32,000 bases of DNA from Dickeya solani IPO 2222 (GTDB lineage: Bacteria; Pseudomonadota; Gammaproteobacteria; Enterobacterales; Enterobacteriaceae), in the NCBI RefSeq assembly GCF_001644705.1, contig NZ_CP015137.1:3810001-3842000 (forward strand), in the 5' to 3' direction. The position numbers and the translations under genes were made by a program. The notes under the pieces are model-generated. The model was not told where the DNA came from and made no database searches. It saw nothing but the letters and a program-made list of their open reading frames with translations. Shown piece after piece: positions 9,896 through 20,282 of the stretch; positions within the stretch are counted from its first letter, which is position 1; the number at the start of each line of letters is the position of its first letter.

Positions 9896-10588
9896 TCAGG
9901 TTGCCTGGCAAACTGAATCCGCGAGTATTGCCCGTTGCTTAACAAGGTGCTGCTTAAATCTCTCGGCGTAATCGTTCCGCACGGCAGCAATGACGCTTGG
10001 TCGGTTTGCCAGTGAAGCCCGCCACGCCGATACACCGGGAAGATTGTCGAAAATCGGCTGCGAAACGTCGGGGCTTAGCAAGTCGAAGTAGCGAAAGACC
10101 GGGGCAAACATCGCATCGACCATACTGAACGCGGATCCTGAAAAATAGGGTCCTTGCTCAAGAGTGCTCTCAAGGCGCTGCAACTTATCACGAAAGGTAG
10201 CTTTCTTATCGTTAGCAACCGCGGGTTCTTTAGCGTTCAGGAACTGCCAGGCATCGGAGAGTGTCGCCACGCCAAACTCTACCCAGGCACGCTGCTGTGC
10301 GCGGGAAAGTGCGTCGCTGGAATAGAGGCTGGTTCCTGCCTGCGTTTCGTTGAGATATTCGCAAATGGCCGCGCTCTCGAACAGGATCGCGTCAGAATTA
10401 TCCGCGAGTTCCACCTTGAGCAATGGCACCTTGCCCGTCGGCGAAAGCGCCAGAAACCAGTCTGGCTTCGCCTCAAGGTTGACGTCGATCCTCTCAAAGG
10501 GCACATTCTTTTCCAATAGCACAATCGCCGCTCGCTGAACAAACGGGCACAACGGATGACTGATGAGCGCAAGTTTTGCGTTCGGCAT
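9896..10588 (-). CDS. Glutathione S-transferase family protein
   Basis: ORF 9896..10696. The ATG at 10588 is preceded by AAGGGAGAG. The thioredoxin-like N-domain reads LISHPLCPFVQRAAIVLLEKNVPFE...SPTGKVPLL. Confidence 0.8.
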   Translation of the reverse strand: MPNAKLALISHPLCPFVQRAAIVLLEKNVPFERIDVNLEAKPDWFLALSPTGKVPLLKVELADNSDAILFESAAICEYLNETQAGTSLYSSDALSRAQQRAWVEFGVATLSDAWQFLNAKEPAVANDKKATFRDKLQRLESTLEQGPYFSGSAFSMVDAMFAPVFRYFDLLSPDVSQPIFDNLPGVSAWRASLANRPSVIAAVRNDYAERFKQHLVKQRAILADSVCQAT

Positions 10589-10637
10589 ATGCTCTCCCTT
10601 AAAGGTCAATGACAGAATGGAATTAAGGTGGCCGTGG

Positions 10638-11396
10638 TTACAGCAGTTGGCCGCCCGAAATGTCAAAAGTCGTCCCGTTAGCCCAGGCCATGTCATCGGA
10701 CAGGATGGCCGCTACTGCTCCACCTACATCGTCCGGAAGACCCACACGGCCCAGTGCGATCCCCTGAGCAACATAAGCATTCACATCCTCATTATCTCGC
10801 ACCGCGCCTCCTCCAAAATCTGTTGCGATGGCTCCTGGGGCAATAGCATTGACCCTAATCTGGCGTGCACCAAGCTCTACGGCCATGTAACGGGTAAGCA
10901 CTTCAACGGCGGCCTTCACAGCCGCATAAATGCTGTACCCCGGCAAAGTAAAGCGTACAAATCCGGACGAAACGTTCAGGATACGTCCGCCGTCTTCAAC
11001 AAGCGGTAACAGCTTCTGAGTCAGAAAAATCGGGCCCTGAAGATGCGTGGTCACCAGTGAAGTAAACTGCTCTTCGGTCGCGTCAACAAAGTTCGCAAAG
11101 AGGCCGTTGCCCGCATTGTTGACGAGGAAGTTGAAACGCTCACGGCCAAAGTCGTTTTTCAGCGTTTCAGTCACGGCGCTTGAAAAAGCCTGATAACTGG
11201 CGGTATCGGTGATGTCGAGCGGCAACATGACGGCCTTGCCGCCTTGTGCTTCGATCTCCTGTTTCAGCGTCTCTGCTTCTGCCGCGCCGCTGCGATAGGT
11301 ACCGATGATGTGGACGCCGCGCCTGGCGAGGTGGAGTGCCATGTTGCGGCCGAGGCCACGGCTGGCGCCGGTGATGAGTGCGATAGGGTGAGTCAT
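10638..11396 (-). CDS. SDR-family oxidoreductase
   Basis: 252-aa ORF. It has the cofactor motif TGASRGLG, the NNAG motif and the catalytic YxxxK (YAAVKAA). Confidence 0.85.
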   Translation of the reverse strand: MTHPIALITGASRGLGRNMALHLARRGVHIIGTYRSGAAEAETLKQEIEAQGGKAVMLPLDITDTASYQAFSSAVTETLKNDFGRERFNFLVNNAGNGLFANFVDATEEQFTSLVTTHLQGPIFLTQKLLPLVEDGGRILNVSSGFVRFTLPGYSIYAAVKAAVEVLTRYMAVELGARQIRVNAIAPGAIATDFGGGAVRDNEDVNAYVAQGIALGRVGLPDDVGGAVAAILSDDMAWANGTTFDISGGQLL

Positions 11397-11556
11397 GAGC
11401 TGTCTCTTTCAGGTTATTAGGGCACCTTCCGGTGCTTTCTTGACCTGCTCATAATAGGTAATGACCGGCGTGTAGCCTACGCCTGATAAGCTCATTTTCT
11501 TGCCTGATTGTATCAATCATCTTGCGTGGTATTACGTCGGTGATAGAATCAGCCTC

Positions 11557-12456
11557 ATGAATGACTCTCTTGCACCGCATCTTGAAATCGCCCTGCGCCA
11601 CGCGTCGCCGGGATTGACTGTCACACGCATCCCACGTGTGGATCTCTGCGTGGGGCAAGGCTCTACGGACAAGGCTCCCTGCCTGTATCGTTCGATGATC
11701 TGCTTCATCCTGCAAGGCTCAAAGCGCGTTGCGATTAACGACACGGTTTTGAGTTACAACAGCGAACAGTATCTTATCAGCGCGCTTGAGCTGCCTTTGA
11801 TCGGACAAATTCTTGATGCTGAAGATGGGCAGCCTTACGTAGCAGTATCGCTGGTGCTGGATCCGGCCATACTGGCGGAATTAGCGGCGAACATGCCTTC
11901 TGTCCGCGAGAGCGAACAGAAGGGGATTGGCATCATGATAAATCCCATGACCGCTTCGCTCCGCGATACGTTACTCCGCCTAATGTTGTTGCTCGATACG
12001 CCTGACGATATCCCTATTCTTGGCCCTATGCTCGAACGGGAATTGCTTTATCGTCTCCTGCAGGGCCCTCAGGGACGACTGCTGCGTCAGATTGCCCAAC
12101 CCGATGGCGCACTCAATAGCATCCGGCGCGCTGTTGGCTGGATCAGGGACAATTACAGTACCCGTCTTCGCATCGAAGCGTTGTGCGAGGTAAGCGGTAT
12201 GAGCAGGGCAAGCCTGCATCGCCATTTTCTGTCAATGACAGGTCTCAGTCCTGTTCAGTATCAGAAACAGCTTAGATTGCAGGAAGCTCGCCAGCTTTTG
12301 CTTACCGGTGAACATCGCGCATCTGACGTGGCGTTTGTCGTCGGCTATGAAAGCGCATCACAGTTTAGCCGTGAATATCTCCGGCAATTTGGCGCGCCGC
12401 CTGTCCGCGACGTGCGCGCCATACGGATGGCGATAGATACGCCAACTAAGGCGTAG
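11557..12456 (+). CDS. AraC-family transcriptional regulator (AraC_N-type N-domain)
   Basis: ORF 11500..12456, with the likely start at ATG 11557 (MNDSLAPHLE). The C-terminal double HTH reads GMSRASLHRHF...GYESASQFSREY. It is divergent from the SDR-GST-LEH operon. Confidence 0.8.
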   Translation: MNDSLAPHLEIALRHASPGLTVTRIPRVDLCVGQGSTDKAPCLYRSMICFILQGSKRVAINDTVLSYNSEQYLISALELPLIGQILDAEDGQPYVAVSLVLDPAILAELAANMPSVRESEQKGIGIMINPMTASLRDTLLRLMLLLDTPDDIPILGPMLERELLYRLLQGPQGRLLRQIAQPDGALNSIRRAVGWIRDNYSTRLRIEALCEVSGMSRASLHRHFLSMTGLSPVQYQKQLRLQEARQLLLTGEHRASDVAFVVGYESASQFSREYLRQFGAPPVRDVRAIRMAIDTPTKA

Positions 12457-12992: not shown

Positions 12993-14147
12993 CTAAATAG
13001 CTTCTCATATTATCGCTCCACTTTAGCCAGCCCATGTTGATTGCCGGCGAACGGTGAAGCCACGTTCATAAATTGTTTTACCCGTTCCAGTAATTGCCAC
13101 ATATATCGATTCTGGTGGTTTCTCGTTATGGTTTCATGTAACGACAGCCACAGCCGTTCTATCGGATTCAGCCACGGCGAATACGTTGGTAGGAACAGCA
13201 ATCGGAATTTCGTGTTTTTCTCCAGCCAGCGCTCCACTTTTCGGCTTTTATGGATGATGTAGTTATCCGCTACCAGTGTGATAGTTTTCGCCCGCCGGTA
13301 TGTGCGCCGCAACGTTTCTAACAAATTGATAAATAAATCAGAACACTTGCTGCTGCCACTAACGTAGTGGATTCGCCCCGTACCCGAATGTAACGCGCCC
13401 GCCAGATAATGTTTTTGGTTCTGTCCCGGCGTGGCAATGCGTTTCTGATGCCCTTTTGGCATCCAGTCCGCGCCAATTTTCGGGTTCAGGTCGATATCAA
13501 CTTCATCCTGATAAAACACGGGATGATTCGTTGACTCCGGAGACAGCGCCTGCTCAATGGCGAGCCGTTTTTCCTCATAGTGTTGATCTTTGATTTTCAA
13601 CGTGGGCGCGGCTCTGCGCCAGACCATACCTACCTGTTTCAGATATCGGTGCAAGGTAGCGGTGAAGCCTCAGGTCGAAAAGTTGGTTGACGATACGGGT
13701 CGGTAACTCCGTGCTCCAACGAGAGCGCAGCCAGCCAAAATCCTGCGGAGAACGTTGTACCAGAAGCGGTAGGACATGCAGGATATCCGTGACGGGCCAG
13801 CGTGGAACACGTCCAGCCCTGAGACTTTTTAGTCCTTCAACATCATGTCAAGTAAACCAATTTATCCATCTTCCAACAGATGAACGAGCGGCACAAAGTA
13901 TTCTGGCGACCTCAGTGACCGTCCTTCCCCGATGCAGCATCAGTATAGCAATGAGGCGTCTGGCATGATTTTTATCGCGGTCTGTTGGGCTTCTTTACGC
14001 ATCAGTTGTCGTTCTTCATCAGGAATTGCTGCTATGATCGGCATCGCTTAGTCCGGCTGGTGGTTTGTTCTTTTTGGCGATTGATCAGATCGCACAATTC
14101 GGACTGAGTTCCCTTCAAGTGATCTACTATTTGGCGAAGTTATTTAG
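12993..14147 (-). mobile_element. IS630-family insertion sequence (decayed)
   Basis: Terminal inverted repeats CTAAATAGCTTC (12993-13004) and GAAGTTATTTAG (14136-14147) match 11/12. The element is ~1.15 kb and its flanking TA is compatible with an IS630 TA target duplication. It encloses an IS630-like transposase reading frame. Confidence 0.8.
13010..14044 (-). pseudogene. IS630-family DDE transposase, disrupted
   Basis: The C-terminal 214 aa (13010..13654) are intact and IS630-like (PVFYQDEVDIDLNPKIGADW...VADNYIIHKS). The N-terminus from ATG 14044 (MPIIAAIPDEERQLMRKEAQQT) is frameshifted. There is an in-frame TGA in WINWFT*HDVEGLK and a 14-nt near-duplication around 13655-13685. Confidence 0.75.
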
Positions 14148-14191: not shown

Positions 14192-15997
14192 TTAGATGGC
14201 AACCTGTGCATCTCCGGAGCCGGAGTTGTACTGACTTCGCTGCAAATTCAGCAGGGCATAATATTCACCCCGCTTTATCTCCAGTTCAGCCGGTGTTCCA
14301 CTTTCAACAATTTCGCCTTGTTTTAATACAATTATCCGCGTGGAGTTTTTTACGGCACTCAGACGGTGTGTGACCATTACGGATGTTCTTCCCCTGACAA
14401 GTTCAGAAAAGCGAGCAAATAACTCGGTTTCCACTCGCGGATCCATTGCGCTGGTTGGTTCATCAAGTATGATTAATTCCCCGTCAGAAAACAGAGCACG
14501 GGCCAGTGCAAGGCGCTGCCACTGACCACCAGAAAGTTCTGTACCGGAATATTCTTTCCCGAGGAAACTGGTTGCATCATGGGGGATTTCCAGCGGGAAC
14601 TGAGCCTGTTCACAAGTCTGTAAAAAGCGTTGTTGCTCGACCGTACTCATGTTGTTCCTGAACGTGACATTCTCCTGCACCGTCATATTGTAATGGCCAA
14701 AATCTTGAAAAATAGCACTAAGGCAACGATGCCATGTCCTTATATCAATGCTGGCAACATCAATCCCGTTCCAGGTAATACGGCCGGATGTGGGGTGGTA
14801 CAAACGGCAGAGCAGCTTAATCAGTGTTGATTTACCTGCGCCATTTTCACCAACAATAGAAAGCTGGTCACCAGCATGGATCGTTAGATTAATATTGCTG
14901 AGAACGTTGTGGCCGTTCTCATAAGAAAAGGAAACATTTTCAAACTTGATTTCATCTAGAGGAGGTATCTCAGAGAGGGAATAGCTGTTCTCCTGCGCAA
15001 CGCTTTCAAGTTCTCTCAGTCGAGCAAAGAAACTAAAACAGACGCCGATATTAGCAAAGGAATACACCATCCACTGGCAAGATAAACCAAAGAAAGAAAT
15101 TGATTGTATGGTGCCCAGTAACCCTCCGACAGAAATTCTGCCTGCCTGAAGATATTCAACAAACCAGTACATAACACCTAGGATGGATGCCAGGTATAAA
15201 AGATTCCATGGCTGGGGTCTGAGTAATTGTTTGCGTCTGACCTGATTTAATTCATTTTCCAGCTCTTCGAAAGCCTGCGTGTGTTTGGTGAAAAAAAATG
15301 ATGCTGAACGGAAAATTCTGACCTCTTTAGCTAGCTTCACATCAAGTAGAACACCCAGATAATACCTTATCAGGCGAGCGGCGGTACCTTTTCCCAGCAG
15401 AGCTCGAAAAATATCGATTTGTGAAAGTGCAACAGTAAAAGTGATCGGGATAAGCGGCAGAAGAAATGCCAGAGGAAACCACCAGACAACTGAAGCCAGT
15501 ACCAGAGACAAAGACAACAGCGTTAGTATGCCGCGAAATATATCAACAAGATTAACCAGAAGGTTCAGGGGACGGTGAGCTGCTTCTCTTGAAAGAACCT
15601 CAAGATTATCGTGTATGTCCGGTTTCTCGATAATTTTCAGGTCTTCAATGCGGCAGGCTGCCTCCATAATAGTTCGTTGTGTCAGATAGGTGGCATGCTG
15701 ATTCAGTATACTTTGTAGAGTACTGATAATGGGAGCCAGCACACCGGGGAAGACAAATGTCAATGCCCAGAATACTGCCACGGTCATCAGACCTGAATGA
15801 TCCGGGCTACTGATGATATTTCCGAGCCGGATGCTTGCCATCACACTCGTGGTAGGCAATAACCCCTGCAGGGCAATGAGGATGATAAACAGCGTGGATA
15901 GCCATGGTGATTTCCTGAATAGCAATGAAAGTGAATAGGTCACCAGATTCAGTTTTTCTTTTACCTTCTGCATCAGAAAAGCTCCATTGTCAGGCAT
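14192..15997 (-). CDS. ABC exporter, fused permease/ATPase (type I exporter), no peptidase domain
   Basis: 601-aa ORF with six predicted N-terminal TM helices. It has Walker A GENGAGKST, the signature LSGGQWQR and Walker B LIILDEPTSAMD. An alternative start at ATG 15973 overlaps the upstream stop codon (TGATG) and has GGAG 8 nt upstream. Confidence 0.85.
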   Translation of the reverse strand: MPDNGAFLMQKVKEKLNLVTYSLSLLFRKSPWLSTLFIILIALQGLLPTTSVMASIRLGNIISSPDHSGLMTVAVFWALTFVFPGVLAPIISTLQSILNQHATYLTQRTIMEAACRIEDLKIIEKPDIHDNLEVLSREAAHRPLNLLVNLVDIFRGILTLLSLSLVLASVVWWFPLAFLLPLIPITFTVALSQIDIFRALLGKGTAARLIRYYLGVLLDVKLAKEVRIFRSASFFFTKHTQAFEELENELNQVRRKQLLRPQPWNLLYLASILGVMYWFVEYLQAGRISVGGLLGTIQSISFFGLSCQWMVYSFANIGVCFSFFARLRELESVAQENSYSLSEIPPLDEIKFENVSFSYENGHNVLSNINLTIHAGDQLSIVGENGAGKSTLIKLLCRLYHPTSGRITWNGIDVASIDIRTWHRCLSAIFQDFGHYNMTVQENVTFRNNMSTVEQQRFLQTCEQAQFPLEIPHDATSFLGKEYSGTELSGGQWQRLALARALFSDGELIILDEPTSAMDPRVETELFARFSELVRGRTSVMVTHRLSAVKNSTRIIVLKQGEIVESGTPAELEIKRGEYYALLNLQRSQYNSGSGDAQVAI

Positions 15998-16827
15998 TTC
16001 CCGTTCGGGAAAATGACAAATTCATCAAAATGTCGAGGAGTATTCAGAATTAGCTCCATCGCATCCCTGGTTTCCGTTCTGTAGAGGGAGGATATCATTT
16101 TTACACGGTATGTCTGGTTACCCATTTTTTTGCACGCATGCCGTACAGAGTTTATTGACAGTGAATGTCCATCTGGTGTTGCCAGAAATGTCATGTTTTC
16201 AGAAAATACGCCGTATGATGTGATATCGATGCTTCCATGAAATTTGTTTTCGAGTGTCTGACAGAGCGAAGGGTAATGGAGCCATGAAGTGTGCGTTGCA
16301 TGAAAGTTGTGGCAGATGACAAAAATTAATTCATAACCAAGCTGGATAGCTAACCCGATCTTCTCCGCCATAGCGGTCTCACGCTGTTCCGGCGTTGCTC
16401 CAGTCATACTTAATGTACTTTGTCGATCAAACTCCAGCAAACTGATCAACAGACGCTGCTCAGCAAGAGGAACTAAGCGAATACTTTTAATATAATTTTC
16501 ATGAAGTGTTGTGGATAAAGGTAAATCAATCCCCGCAATAACACATGTTGCAGGTAAAGCATGGAGGAAAGTTGCAAACTCCTCAGAACGCATCCACCAG
16601 TACGCTGACGATGTAAGGTACGACATGTCCCCGGTATTTACTTTTCTAAAGCGTCTGAGTGTAAACACAATCAGGTCTATAGTCGGACATTCGACAAGAA
16701 CTATGCTACGTAACTCCCTTCGTAGCTTATGTATAAAGGCATTCCGAAACGCCCATGACTCGTCTGAACCATGGCTGTTCTGACCAATAAAATAAATATG
16801 CTTTTTAGCCTGCTTTGTATACAACAT
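15973..16827 (-). CDS. Erythromycin-esterase / ChaN (TIKI-TraB)-like superfamily protein, function unknown
   Basis: 284-aa ORF. The N-terminal YFIGQNSHGSDESWAFRNAFIHKL resembles the Ere-family G-E-x-x-H-G-x-x-E motif, and the later VICHNFHATH resembles the AHNxH motif. The start overlaps the upstream gene by 23 nt. The family assignment is from memory only. Confidence 0.5.
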   Translation of the reverse strand: MLYTKQAKKHIYFIGQNSHGSDESWAFRNAFIHKLRRELRSIVLVECPTIDLIVFTLRRFRKVNTGDMSYLTSSAYWWMRSEEFATFLHALPATCVIAGIDLPLSTTLHENYIKSIRLVPLAEQRLLISLLEFDRQSTLSMTGATPEQRETAMAEKIGLAIQLGYELIFVICHNFHATHTSWLHYPSLCQTLENKFHGSIDITSYGVFSENMTFLATPDGHSLSINSVRHACKKMGNQTYRVKMISSLYRTETRDAMELILNTPRHFDEFVIFPNGKCLTMELF

Positions 16828-18331
16828 TCATACTCCGCGCTATAAGGTGATGTTGTCTTAATAAATACCGTTCATCACGAGAAAAATAGCTGTCAATCTG
16901 TTCAAGAGGGGTGGTAGGGAAAAAGTCAGGGAATTCGTTTTTCTCTCCATCAAATAAACTGCGTGAATTAATAAAAAGATGAAACAGAGGAATGTCATAG
17001 TTTGCAAGGCAGGATACTTCATATAATATAAGACTCTGAAACTTGGGGTGTGATCCGGGGTAGAGTAAAAATTCATCAATTAACGCTGGTAGCTTTTTTT
17101 TGATATTTATGCTTGTCTCTGGATGAATTATTTTATTAATGATAAGTAGATAATAAGCTGTTGTGCGAACGAGGTAACGTGGTTTAATTTCTGAGTGGTT
17201 TTTCAGGAGGGAAATTATTCTCGCATGGTTTCTTTTTAATTTGAGAAACGTGTCGGTATATCCCTCTGTTACATCAGAAATATACTTCTTAGACTTCACC
17301 GGAAGACCGTGGTAGTGTGGGAAGTTTTGTGTCCGTTTGGCAAATCCTCGTTCATATCGAACCTGAATATTTTCAGTCGCATCATGGATGGCATGAGGAT
17401 AGGTAAAAGACTGAAATATATTGGTGACAGCGGTAAGTGCTGATGTATGCCCTAGTCCATTCTTGACAACATCCGGGCTCTGAAGCAATCCGCTTTGATA
17501 TATAGAACGTTCAAATTCCGGGGCGTCATCAAAAAAATACTGGAAGCTGGTTTCGGGATCTATCAGCCATACAGTGTCAGCATCTACAATGAAGTTATCA
17601 AAATGACAGTCATTGATATTCAGAAGATCGGCTAGAGCTAGAATGTTACCGTATCTTCTGTAAACTTTGGCTGCATCCACGCTCAAATCCAAGCCCCTGT
17701 TTTCGACAAATTCCTGCCACAAATGTGTTTTAAGACTAAGTGTCACAGGGCAGACATTAGCTAACCCGATAATGTTGCAGATCTCATTAAGTACATTTTC
17801 AATGCCAGAATCTCTGGGTTTGTAAATAAGCTTGAAGCTTCCGAGGGCTAGTATTACTGGTTGTTGTCCATTGTCATGCCGGTCACCAGCAGCTAAAGAC
17901 AGCTTTCCCGGAGTTGAAGAAAGTGGTGGGCAATTATAAATATCAATAAGTAACTTATGTTCCTCTATTAAGCGGATAAGAAAATTATTTATGTTTGCGA
18001 TAGTGGTATCACAGATATGTTCTGCCAGTTGACTAATATATTGATTGTGGTTTCTTAGCCCTGGCAGCCAGGAATTATCATCATTCTTGAAATAGGAAGT
18101 ATATCTATCTGAATGTGAATCGGGTTGTGTTTTCAGCCATTCATCGAATTTAACAACAAAATCAGGAAGGTGGATTTGATCAAGTGATTCAGAGATACTC
18201 AATGACACATCTGTAAAATCGAGGTGATGCAGACCATAATCAGTCAGCATCTGTTGCATCTTTTTATTAAAATTTCTTATATATGGGAAATAGAGGTAAG
18301 CACGATATGGTTCTGACAGTATGTAGCGCAT
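16805..18331 (-). CDS. Stand-alone LanM-type (DUF4135) lanthipeptide dehydratase/kinase domain protein, no LanC cyclase domain
   Basis: 508-aa ORF carrying the LanM N-domain motifs in order. These are GDRHDNGQ (149-156), KLIYKPRD (167-174), DCHFDN (241-246, DxHxxN), LIDPET (256-261), SGLLQSP (280-286), RYLVRTTAYY (385-394, the Arg/Thr elimination motif) and DIPLF (446-450). The protein ends ~60 aa later, with no WCxG or CHG Zn-ligand motifs. Confidence 0.75.
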   Translation of the reverse strand: MRYILSEPYRAYLYFPYIRNFNKKMQQMLTDYGLHHLDFTDVSLSISESLDQIHLPDFVVKFDEWLKTQPDSHSDRYTSYFKNDDNSWLPGLRNHNQYISQLAEHICDTTIANINNFLIRLIEEHKLLIDIYNCPPLSSTPGKLSLAAGDRHDNGQQPVILALGSFKLIYKPRDSGIENVLNEICNIIGLANVCPVTLSLKTHLWQEFVENRGLDLSVDAAKVYRRYGNILALADLLNINDCHFDNFIVDADTVWLIDPETSFQYFFDDAPEFERSIYQSGLLQSPDVVKNGLGHTSALTAVTNIFQSFTYPHAIHDATENIQVRYERGFAKRTQNFPHYHGLPVKSKKYISDVTEGYTDTFLKLKRNHARIISLLKNHSEIKPRYLVRTTAYYLLIINKIIHPETSINIKKKLPALIDEFLLYPGSHPKFQSLILYEVSCLANYDIPLFHLFINSRSLFDGEKNEFPDFFPTTPLEQIDSYFSRDERYLLRQHHLIARSMNVVYKAG

Positions 18332-18351: not shown

Positions 18352-18382
18352 AAAAAAGGGCAGCCGATGGCCGCCCTTTTTT
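18352..18382 (-). terminator. Intra-operon hairpin/attenuator between the precursor and modification genes
   Basis: The minus strand reads GGGCGGC-catcg-GCUGCCC (7 bp, with one G-U pair that would be an A-C mismatch on the plus strand), followed by TTTTTT. It starts 2 nt after the peptide stop codon and ends 20 nt before the next ATG. Confidence 0.6.
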
Positions 18383-18383
18383 A

Positions 18384-18563
18384 TCAATTAAAGAATTCTT
18401 CAGTAATTTCCTGAAGCTCTTTGATTAGTACTTCTTCAGAGGAGATATTAATACCACTACCTCCGCAGTCGCAGGTACCACTGGCGCAGTCAACACCACT
18501 ATTAGCCATATAACCGCGAATATCGGAGATCTTACTCGGTGCTACTTCGATAATACGTTCCAT
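18384..18563 (-). CDS. Candidate RiPP precursor peptide (59 aa)
   Basis: Hand translation gives MERIIEVAPSKISDIRGYMANSGVDCASGTCDCGGSGINISSEEVLIKELQEITEEFFN. The Shine-Dalgarno GAGGT ends 6 nt before the ATG. It is the first gene of the operon and is followed by a hairpin. It is below the 60-aa cutoff of the supplied ORF track. Confidence 0.7.
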   Translation of the reverse strand: MERIIEVAPSKISDIRGYMANSGVDCASGTCDCGGSGINISSEEVLIKELQEITEEFFN

Positions 18564-19373
18564 TTGTTACCTCGGATTTTGTCAATTACTACGTAAGTGG
18601 ATAAACAATGTCTTCGCGAGATACAACTTTTGTGTACACAGAGAAAGTATAAAATGGGAATAATAGATTAAAATGTGATCTGTCTCTGATAAATAATCTG
18701 ATGGTAATTTGATTTTTTATTTTCCAGTGATTTGAGTTTTTTTGTTCTTATGTATAGTTTCTTTTTCTATGATCTCTAATGTTTTTTCTTTATGTGCAAA
18801 CAATATGCATTTTTATTATTCATATTTTGTTTCATGTTTTTACCCCTATTGAGGATGTGAAATTATGGTAATTAAGTGAAAGATTAAAAATCTAATGGAG
18901 GGACATTAAGCGATTATTTCTTGCACGGACAGTAACATATATCAGATTTGGAAATTTGTTCTTCAGAGCAAGTAAATAAATTTACTTATGGTAATAATTT
19001 ATTTTGATGAAAGTTATTTATTGTTAACGATAAACTATCGAGCAGATTGATTTATGTAGCGAACATTCTGGATGTACTAATGTCTCTGATAAACTACAGT
19101 TTTTTCAATGTGTTCGCAAGAGTTATACAGAAATGTTCGAGCTTTAACTGAATATTAATGTGTGCTTAATAAAATTATAATGAATTTTTAGTTCGCAATA
19201 ATGTTTGATTCATTATCAGGGGAAAACCGTTAATTGGCATAATTACTGTATCTGGTTTCAAGTCAGCTTCACGGCTGTTCGGTGTTCACTTTGCTTCAGC
19301 CATGGCGTATAGCATTGCTAACTAAAAGAATAGCACTTGTACTGACGGGGACTACTTCAAGGTTATCTATTAA

Positions 19374-20033
19374 TCAATCTACTGAAGACTCAGGCAACAT
19401 GATGGCTATTTTCTCTACTCTGGGTATTAACGAAGGATACATCCGCTTACCGGTCACGACACCTACCAAGTTCAATGCAGCGCTGTTTTTCACCCGTCCC
19501 TTCTGTAATGCGTAACGCATGATGTTGCACAGGTGCTGCCGGGTACGGGCTGCCACTTCCAGTAAACCTTTTTTCTCAATCCCTTTCAGCAGGTCGATGA
19601 AATGACGGGGTTTTAGTTCCGTGACGGGCAGGTGCCCGATAACCGGGAAAATATGGTTGTTCATGCTGGCAAGCAGACGGGCGGCGTGGTTCTCTGACCA
19701 TGTCCGGTTGCTCTTGTGCCAGTCCAGCGCTACGTCCCTGAATGATTTTTCTGGTGAGCGGGGCGCTTTTTCTGCCGCCCGTTGGTGCGCGGGGTTGATA
19801 TTCTGCGCCAGCAGTTTACGGATGCCGTCACGCTGTTGACGCGCATCGGCCAGCGATACATCGGGGTAGGTACCTAAACCGAGGCGGGATTCTTTTCTAT
19901 TGATACGATATTTGAGATACCAGAGACGTGAACCGCCTGGATTAACTAAAAGGCACAGACCGTGAGAATCGGAAACTTTGTAGGGTTTTGCAGATGGTTT
20001 TAAGTTGCGGATTTTTGAGTCGTTAAGAGACAT
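19374..20033 (-). pseudogene. P4-type tyrosine integrase, 3'-truncated (N-terminal ~200 aa only)
   Basis: MSLNDSKIRNLKPSAKPYKVSDSHGLCLLVNPGGSRLWYLKYR...GTYPDVSLADARQQRD is the classic P4/CP4-57 Int arm-binding and SAM-like N-terminus. The catalytic R-K-H-R-H-Y domain (~220 aa) is absent. Similarity ends near 19400, where AT-rich DNA begins. Confidence 0.8.
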
Positions 20034-20206: not shown

Positions 20207-20282
20207 TGGCTCCTCTGACTGGACTCGAACCAGTGACATACGGATTAACAGTCCGCCGTTCTACCGACTGAACTACAGAGGA
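20207..20282 (-). tRNA. tRNA-Asn (anticodon GUU)
   Basis: The minus strand reads TCCTCTGTAGTTCAGTCGGTAGAACGGCGGACTGTTAATCCGTATGTCACTGGTTCGAGTCCAGTCAGAGGAGCCA. This matches my recollection of E. coli tRNA-Asn, including the encoded CCA. Confidence 0.95.

Follow-up and report, generated by a model that had tools for sequence, protein, structure and literature searches.

The 59-codon open reading frame at positions 18384–18563 of the window (the whole stretch of 32 000 nucleotides of Dickeya solani IPO 2222 DNA that was analysed) is a real, conserved gene. Its product is probably a genuine RiPP precursor, modified at a central motif by a stand-alone dehydratase. The four-gene cassette that begins with this gene occurs on mobile elements in various Enterobacterales and most likely specifies an uncharacterised, bacteriocin- or microcin-like RiPP. 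The features of the window discussed below are the following.

13010–14100, minus strand: IS630-family element with a DDE_3 transposase, immediately after the ABC stop codon (domain search)
14192–15997, minus strand: putative ABC exporter (TMD + NBD), 601 aa (domain search)
15973–16827, minus strand: erythromycin-esterase/TIKI-fold protein, 284 aa (AlphaFold model and fold search)
16805–18331, minus strand: predicted stand-alone LanM-type dehydratase, 508 aa, DUF4135 only (Pfam, NCBIfam and CylM alignment)
18352–18382, minus strand: terminator-like hairpin (A-tract, G+C-rich stem of 12–15 bp, U-tract) in the gap between the precursor and enzyme genes (folding)
18384–18563, minus strand: probable precursor-peptide gene, 59 codons (read from the sequence, homologues and codon alignment)
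18569–18573, minus strand: Shine-Dalgarno sequence GAGGT (read from the sequence)
19374–20033, minus strand: truncated P4-type integrase (219 aa), reduced to the Arm-binding and central domains; island boundary
20207–20282, minus strand: tRNA-Asn; island boundary

A conserved small gene at the head of the cassette

We translated the minus strand between positions 18384 and 18563 and obtained exactly the 59-residue peptide quoted in the preliminary description, with C26, C31 and C33 and S22, S28, T30, S36, S41 and S42 at the positions given there; the Ser and Thr residues outside that cluster are S10, S13 and T54. The good Shine-Dalgarno sequence that had been claimed was found 5 nt upstream of the ATG, and the frame is indeed the first in a co-directional row, followed by the genes for the 508-, 284- and 601-aa proteins. 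It had been absent from the open reading frame track because it is shorter than the length cutoff. The databases already contain the exact peptide under the name 'hypothetical protein [Dickeya solani]', with AYQ47304.1 among the entries, on 44 contigs.

A word-indexed search yielded 15 clusters of homologues of 56–65 aa (E = 1e-12 to 1e-30) from Dickeya, Pantoea, Serratia, Buttiauxella, Salmonella, Enterobacter and Erwinia. Two distant members (P0061 and P0063) were added by a profile search of 1.84 billion representatives, and two more homologues were obtained by reading loci reached via the enzyme gene, so that about 20 distinct homologues were available in total. In a codon-level alignment of 12 loci, synonymous variation was observed at almost every invariant codon; for example, Gly17 and Gly29 are each encoded by four codons, and Ser28 is encoded by AGC, AGT, TCA and TCC, that is, by both serine families (AGY and TCN). 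This synonymous turnover across the gene indicates purifying selection on the amino-acid sequence, and a chance open reading frame is ruled out by the same codon-level evidence.

The peptide gene is also conserved in homologous clusters beside DUF4135 genes, where the preliminary description had proposed to look for it. The order of peptide, ~500-aa DUF4135 protein, ~285-aa protein and ~590-aa ABC protein was found in 13 out of 13 distinct intact loci, which come from Dickeya, Pantoea, Erwinia, Salmonella, Buttiauxella, Enterobacter, Scandinavium, Dryocola and metagenomes. The proposal of a precursor-type gene is thus borne out by the homologues, by the synteny with the DUF4135 enzyme and by selection at the codon level.

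Anatomy and conservation of the peptide

The alignment of the homologues divides the peptide into four segments.

Residues 1–17: candidate N-terminal leader (conservation)
Residues 18–33: core, YMANS22GVDC26AS28GT30C31DC33 (conservation)
Residues 34–40: Gly-rich linker of variable length (alignment)
Residues 41–59: acidic amphipathic tail, with FFx at the end (alignment)

The central motif IRGY-x3-[ST]-x3-C-x-[ST]-G-T-C is invariant among the homologues, and the residues invariant family-wide are R3, I4, I15, R16, G17, Y18, C26, G29, T30 and C31. Positions 22 and 28 hold either Ser or Thr, whereas C26 and C31 are fixed, and the spacings between them are ring-compatible (i+4 from [S/T]22 to C26 and i+3 from [S/T]28 to C31). 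Position 33 is facultative (C, S, G, H, L or M), with another Cys often found 2–6 residues further on; P0061 and P0063 contain four Cys in the arrangement …C-x-T-G-T-C-x-C-G-x1-2-C. The Cys/Ser/Thr cluster had been proposed as the functional centre of the peptide, and this stands for [S/T]22, C26, [S/T]28, T30 and C31, which are conserved, but not for C33, S36, S41 and S42, which are not. Rings D/E of nisin and subtilin show the pattern T-x-T-C-x-C, and in our reading [ST]28-G-T30-C31-x-C33 reproduces it.

The mean pairwise identity was 0.82 in the core (residues 18–32), 0.67 in residues 1–17 and 0.43 in the tail (minimum, 0.09), and this order of conservation supports the central core well. 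The Gly linker between core and tail varies from ~2 to ~12 residues across the homologues. The tail has a hydrophobic moment of ~0.6 and a net charge of –5; L46, E49, L50, F57 and F58 hardly vary within the main Enterobacterales subgroup, and all members of the family retain an aromatic pair close to the C-terminus. In an AlphaFold model of the peptide alone (low confidence, pLDDT 64), helices at residues 9–21 and 42–58 flank a disordered centre. A comparison of the peptide with the known precursor and leader models of Pfam and NCBIfam gave no meaningful match at E ≤ 10, and the NHLP and Nif11 models did not match it.

A stand-alone DUF4135 enzyme

The neighbouring enzyme had been described as a LanM-type DUF4135 protein without a cyclase, and the domain searches agree: DUF4135 is the sole Pfam match of the 508-aa protein (E = 4.9e-69) and a LanC domain is absent. 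The NCBIfam LanM model (TIGR03897) scored 206.9, below its cutoff of 304, and aligned over model positions 4–519 of 932 only. No LANC_like or LanC cyclase gene was found in any of the cassette loci read. The protein shares 100% identity with a D. solani entry, and its family comprises about 22 clusters, all from Enterobacterales; the next match is canonical LanM at 24% identity.

We aligned the enzyme with CylM (5dzt) and compared the residues of the catalytic site. CylM residues D252, H254, K274, D347 and H349 correspond to D150, H152, K171, D241 and H243 of the enzyme, and N352, D364, E366, R506 and T512 correspond to N246, D258, E260, R385 and T391; all ten are invariant in 19 family enzymes. 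In CylM, D347, H349, N352, D364 and K274 are required for phosphorylation, and D252, H254, R506 and T512 are required for phosphate elimination (PMC4550811). Excised LanM dehydratase domains are active alone (PMC10676384). Since both the kinase and the elimination residues are complete, and since excised domains are active elsewhere, we predict that the 508-aa enzyme is a Ser/Thr dehydratase capable of both steps.

In some D. solani (WOA50987/WOA50988) and D. dadantii (NPE63143/NPE63145) entries and in locus L020, the DUF4135 gene is broken into two or three fragments (137–304 aa), which suggests either that the cassette is decaying in part of the population or that these assemblies contain frameshift errors. 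An unrelated stand-alone DUF4135 protein (488 aa, 25% identity) was seen in a metagenome-assembled genome of Acidobacteria (L018, 5596–9328), beside a 744-aa Ser/Thr protein kinase-TPR protein and a MacB-type permease and with no peptide homologue seen; cyclase-less DUF4135 enzymes thus occur in other contexts too.

The esterase-fold protein and the ABC protein

The 284-aa protein itself had no Pfam or NCBIfam match, and its 23 homologues are all from Enterobacterales. Weak Erythro_esteras matches were obtained for 7 out of 18 homologues and ChaN/Tiki matches for two, and a PDB sequence search with the profile of the family returned nothing relevant. An AlphaFold model computed from 18 sequences (pLDDT 90, pTM 0.90) was compared with known structures by Foldseek, and it matched Bacillus cereus BcR135/136 and EreC (E = 1e-11 to 1e-9, probability 1.0), the top PDB entries being 2rad, 2qgm, 3b55 and, for EreC, 6xcs/6xcq. 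The invariant residues are H19 (GQNSHG), E46 (ECPT), R149-E150, C172-H173-N-F-H176 and C189, among which the His/Glu/HNxH set (H19, E46, H173 and H176) resembles what we take to be the hydrolytic centre of Ere/TIKI enzymes. The fold is that of the Ere/TIKI/ChaN superfamily (EreC and BcR135/136), but the protein is shorter by ~120 residues, contains invariant Cys and lies in a putative RiPP operon. Judging from the model, it is a candidate leader or follower peptidase, cyclisation helper or cyclase, or immunity hydrolase. An Ere-like enzyme of unknown role was once noted in gammaproteobacterial graspetide loci (PMC8939145).

For the 601-aa ABC protein, ABC_tran/NBD models were the only matches, and a C39 peptidase domain is absent. 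We consider it a candidate exporter and self-immunity pump.

In three loci from Erwinia sp. and food metagenomes (L002–L004, about 10001–12340), the precursor gene is intact and the ABC gene is kept, and the genes for the DUF4135 enzyme and the 285-aa protein are lost. The full cassette is found at the same chromosomal site in Erwinia sp. E602 (L010), with a peptide that differs by one residue; as this site is complete in E602, the three loci look like the result of a recent deletion, and their hosts are possibly immune non-producers.

Some relatives of the cassette carry a fifth gene, of one of two kinds.

L001, 14368–15063; L015, 10123–10818; L016, 5851–6510: DsbA-like fifth gene, co-directional, in Pantoea allii, Erwinia oleae and Scandinavium
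L012, 10115–10933; L013, 4535–5350: other fifth gene, protein of ~271 aa with a weak NTP_transf_2 match

The DsbA-like gene encodes a thioredoxin-fold protein of 219–231 aa, and in all three loci there is an overlap between it and the stop codon of the ABC gene; the precursors of these loci all carry C33. The presence of the DsbA-like gene hints that some Cys of the peptide may be free or in disulfides. The ~271-aa protein occurs in the most divergent cassettes, and its gene suggests an extra tailoring or immunity function.

Which flank the enzyme recognises

The preliminary description regarded the C-terminal acidic helix as a leader-like recognition element, with ExxLxxELxxI as the recognition helix. 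The alignment does not favour this reading. The tail is the least conserved segment of the peptide, and the ExxLxxELxxI pattern is absent in L012, L013 and P0063 despite clear orthologous enzymes. The N-terminal segment (RII...K-I-x-x-I-R-G-Y) is most likely the better recognition candidate; residues 1–17 occupy the canonical leader position and carry family-wide invariant residues. If G17-Y18 are taken as positions –2/–1, I15, I12, V7 and I4 would fall at –4, –7, –12 and –15, which is the spacing of a double-glycine or class II leader. The likeness is our reading of the residue spacing; no leader or precursor model matches the peptide, and the cassette encodes no C39 peptidase to cut a leader of the double-Gly type.

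We consider it unlikely that the acidic helix (SEEVLIKELQEITEEFF) is recognised by the DUF4135 enzyme, with the N-terminus serving another role or with both flanks acting jointly. Such recognition would agree with the strong amphipathicity and predicted helicity of the tail, with its five nearly invariant residues in the main Enterobacterales subgroup, with the aromatic pair kept near the C-terminus and with the E-L-x-x-I spacing, which in our reading resembles that of class II leaders. However, the identity of the tail falls as low as 0.09, ELxxI is lost in three members whose enzymes are clear orthologues, and, with a linker of variable length, the spacing between helix and core differs widely. 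Moreover, to our knowledge no LanM-type enzyme uses a follower. A bipartite arrangement of leader and follower may apply, as both flanks are predicted to be helical and the tail keeps its acidic amphipathic character together with the aromatic pair. The nearly invariant residues in the main subgroup show the tail to be under some constraint, and it could be a follower for a second enzyme or the exporter, or a part of the mature peptide.

The hairpin and the region upstream of the precursor gene

The hairpin reported between the precursor and enzyme genes was confirmed by folding (–27.1 kcal/mol, z = –5.5), and none of 200 shuffled sequences folded as well; a simple terminator scan did not call it. 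A stable hairpin (–17 to –24 kcal/mol) is found in the same place after the peptide stop in eight other loci. The sequences of these hairpins are unrelated, which indicates that the element is conserved as a structure and not as a sequence. A hairpin after the precursor gene is a familiar layout for an excess of precursor transcript over the processing enzymes. The hairpin of the cassette probably acts as a leaky terminator or stabilises the mRNA, and would thereby keep the amount of precursor high relative to that of the enzyme.

A sigma-70 scan of the AT-rich non-coding region of ~800 bp upstream of the precursor gene found no convincing promoter. An exact 13-nt direct repeat, TGTCTCTGATAAA, is present in this non-coding region at 18681–18693 and 19081–19093, 400 nt apart; it could be a regulator-binding site or a chance occurrence. 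In a contig of Salmonella Newport (L005, 8193–8230), a (GATAAA)6 tandem repeat lies between the precursor stop and the terminator-like hairpin. Around the cassette in the window, Rfam models matched nothing but the tRNA.

Comparison with known systems

Among the known systems compared, the cassette would work most like a class II lanthipeptide pathway, but it differs from such a pathway with respect to LanC and a C39 exporter and, it appears, in the position of the core. In common with LanA/LanM systems such as cytolysin (CylLS/CylM), it has a DUF4135 dehydratase with identical catalytic residues, a small precursor gene placed first in the operon and followed by a hairpin, a core with many Ser, Thr and Cys residues at distances that would allow rings, and an ABC exporter. 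Unlike these systems, it contains no LanC domain or gene, and its exporter lacks the C39 peptidase with which LanT-type exporters cut the double-Gly leader. Furthermore, its core is central, with a conserved N-terminal segment before it and an acidic tail of ~25 aa after it, an esterase-fold partner is present and the hosts are Enterobacterales.

With class II microcins, the cassette shares a compact, mobile and island-borne organization, a small Gly-rich anionic precursor with an N-terminal segment of ~17 aa, and an ABC exporter that probably doubles as the immunity determinant. Class II microcins have a double-glycine leader, are exported by a C39-ABC exporter with a membrane-fusion protein and undergo no LanM-type dehydration, whereas neither a C39 domain nor an MFP gene is present in the cassette. 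Follower-type precursors such as that of bottromycin resemble the precursor of the cassette in having, after the modified residues, a C-terminal extension conserved in character. They have no N-terminal leader, in contrast to the precursor of the cassette, in which the 17-residue N-terminal segment is well conserved and the tail shows the lowest conservation of all segments.

PoyF (polytheonamide) and EmbM (phospeptin) are stand-alone LanM-N-domain enzymes (PMC9505594), and they share with the cassette a DUF4135-only enzyme and the lack of a cyclase. PoyF dehydrates a single Thr of a proteusin with an NHLP leader, and EmbM, which lacks the elimination residues, only phosphorylates a substrate that is free of Cys (PMC9505594). 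In the cassette, by contrast, the elimination residues and C26/C31 are invariant, and the precursor has no NHLP or Nif11 match. The dehydrazole enzyme CcaM, in which DUF4135 is combined with a zinc-free class III cyclase domain, forms dehydroamino acids without lanthionines in a leader-independent manner and needs a YcaO-made azole beside Ser (PMC10676384). A divergent DUF4135 enzyme is the point in common with the cassette, which differs in having neither a YcaO protein nor a cyclase-like domain.

We found no paper on this cassette in the literature searched. If the inference holds, the cassette would represent a so far unstudied RiPP family whose hosts are familiar plant-associated and enteric Gram-negatives, among them Dickeya dadantii 3937, D. 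solani, Pantoea, Salmonella and Enterobacter. A cyclase-free LanM dehydratase would be found in it together with a helix-core-helix precursor and an esterase-fold partner to which RiPP chemistry has assigned no role. Because the cassette is small (four genes, about 4.4 kb) and its hosts are related to E. coli, it should be easy to reconstitute. Such work could show how thioether or dehydro-peptides arise without LanC, and whether a LanM-type enzyme reads a non-canonical recognition segment; the cassette may also explain antagonism between soft-rot Pectobacteriaceae strains.

Proposed pathway and alternative products

From the sequence and model comparisons, we infer every chemical step of the following pathway and also which flank the enzyme binds; the tail may end up as a follower, an export signal or a stretch of the mature peptide. 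More of the 59-aa peptide than of the enzymes would be made, owing to the hairpin after its gene, which we propose to be a leaky terminator. The dehydratase would then dock on a flanking helix, most likely at the N-terminal leader, phosphorylate Ser22, Ser28 and Thr30 and eliminate the phosphate, to give Dha and Dhb. Cys26 and Cys31, and Cys33 where present, would add to Dha/Dhb to form small thioether rings, the candidates being 22→26 (i+4), 28→31 (i+3) and 30→33. Since no LanC is present, ring closure would be spontaneous or helped by the esterase-fold protein, and since there is no recognisable cyclase, the thioether rings are conjecture. The Ere/TIKI-fold hydrolase might subsequently trim a flanking segment, or else protect the producer. 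Finally, the ABC pump would export the product and confer immunity.

Several forms of the product were weighed. It is possible, although on the improbable side, that the tail is part of a two-domain microcin-like product of ~40 residues, in which a ringed 'warhead' and a Gly hinge are followed by a diversifying amphipathic helix for a receptor or membrane, and from which only residues 1–17/18 are removed as a leader. The conserved N-terminal module, the indel-rich Gly hinge and the diversifying tail together have the look of a two-domain bacteriocin, a leader of 17–18 aa is within the length range of class II microcin leaders, and the orphan ABC exporter is kept with the precursor in Erwinia; however, the tail is highly acidic (net –5) and the cassette contains no peptidase of known leader specificity. 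We regard as rather doubtful the more specific reading that the product is a LanC-free lanthipeptide-type microcin, the Ere/TIKI-fold protein a new tailoring enzyme and the precursor bipartite, its leader being read by the dehydratase and its follower by the second enzyme or by the exporter. Under this reading, the Ere/TIKI protein would either close thioether rings with the help of its cluster of invariant Cys and His residues or act as a peptidase with cleavage sites at dehydroalanine or beside it.

A small molecule or cofactor might alternatively be excised from C-x-S-G-T-C, both flanks being disposable scaffolds and the esterase-fold hydrolase releasing the product, in the way that pantocin A derives from PaaP and PQQ from PqqA. 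We consider this very unlikely, because the cassette has no oxidase, radical SAM or ThiF-type enzyme and because P0061 and P0063 add Cys, Ser and Thr just after the motif, which looks like additional rings, even though only a short central stretch between two helices shows extreme invariance, a hydrolase-fold protein is always present and relatives in Pantoea and Erwinia make peptide-derived small molecules. It is highly improbable that the enzyme acts as a kinase only, as EmbM does in the formation of phospeptin, or that the product is a Cys-based metal- or redox-binding peptide without dehydration. EmbM demonstrates that a stand-alone LanM-like kinase stopping at phosphorylation exists (PMC9505594), and some loci contain a DsbA-like accessory gene; however, EmbM has no elimination residues and its substrate has no Cys (PMC9505594), whereas D150, H152, R385, T391 and the substrate Cys are all invariant here. 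Modification of the peptide at its central motif by the stand-alone dehydratase is the reading that we prefer.

Distribution and genomic context

A scan of genome contigs found three further family loci and two unrelated DUF4135 genes. In the PLSDB plasmids, canonical LanMs only were found, at <30% identity, with no peptide match, and complete E. coli genomes gave no match. Relatives of the cassette elsewhere neighbour mobile-element genes (ccdAB, integrases, traC and ardC). The cassette in the window is on a decayed tRNA-linked genomic island, with a GC content of 0.34–0.45, compared with 0.55–0.63 in the flanks, and with the tRNA-Asn gene and the truncated P4-type integrase at its boundary.

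A defence-system reading was rejected, as the PADLOC models matched none of the cassette-specific proteins. The frame of the IS630 transposase appears split, the DDE_3 part being at 13010–13654, whereas a different frame, farther upstream, encodes an HTH-like N-terminal part. The element sits where some relatives carry the DsbA-like fifth gene.
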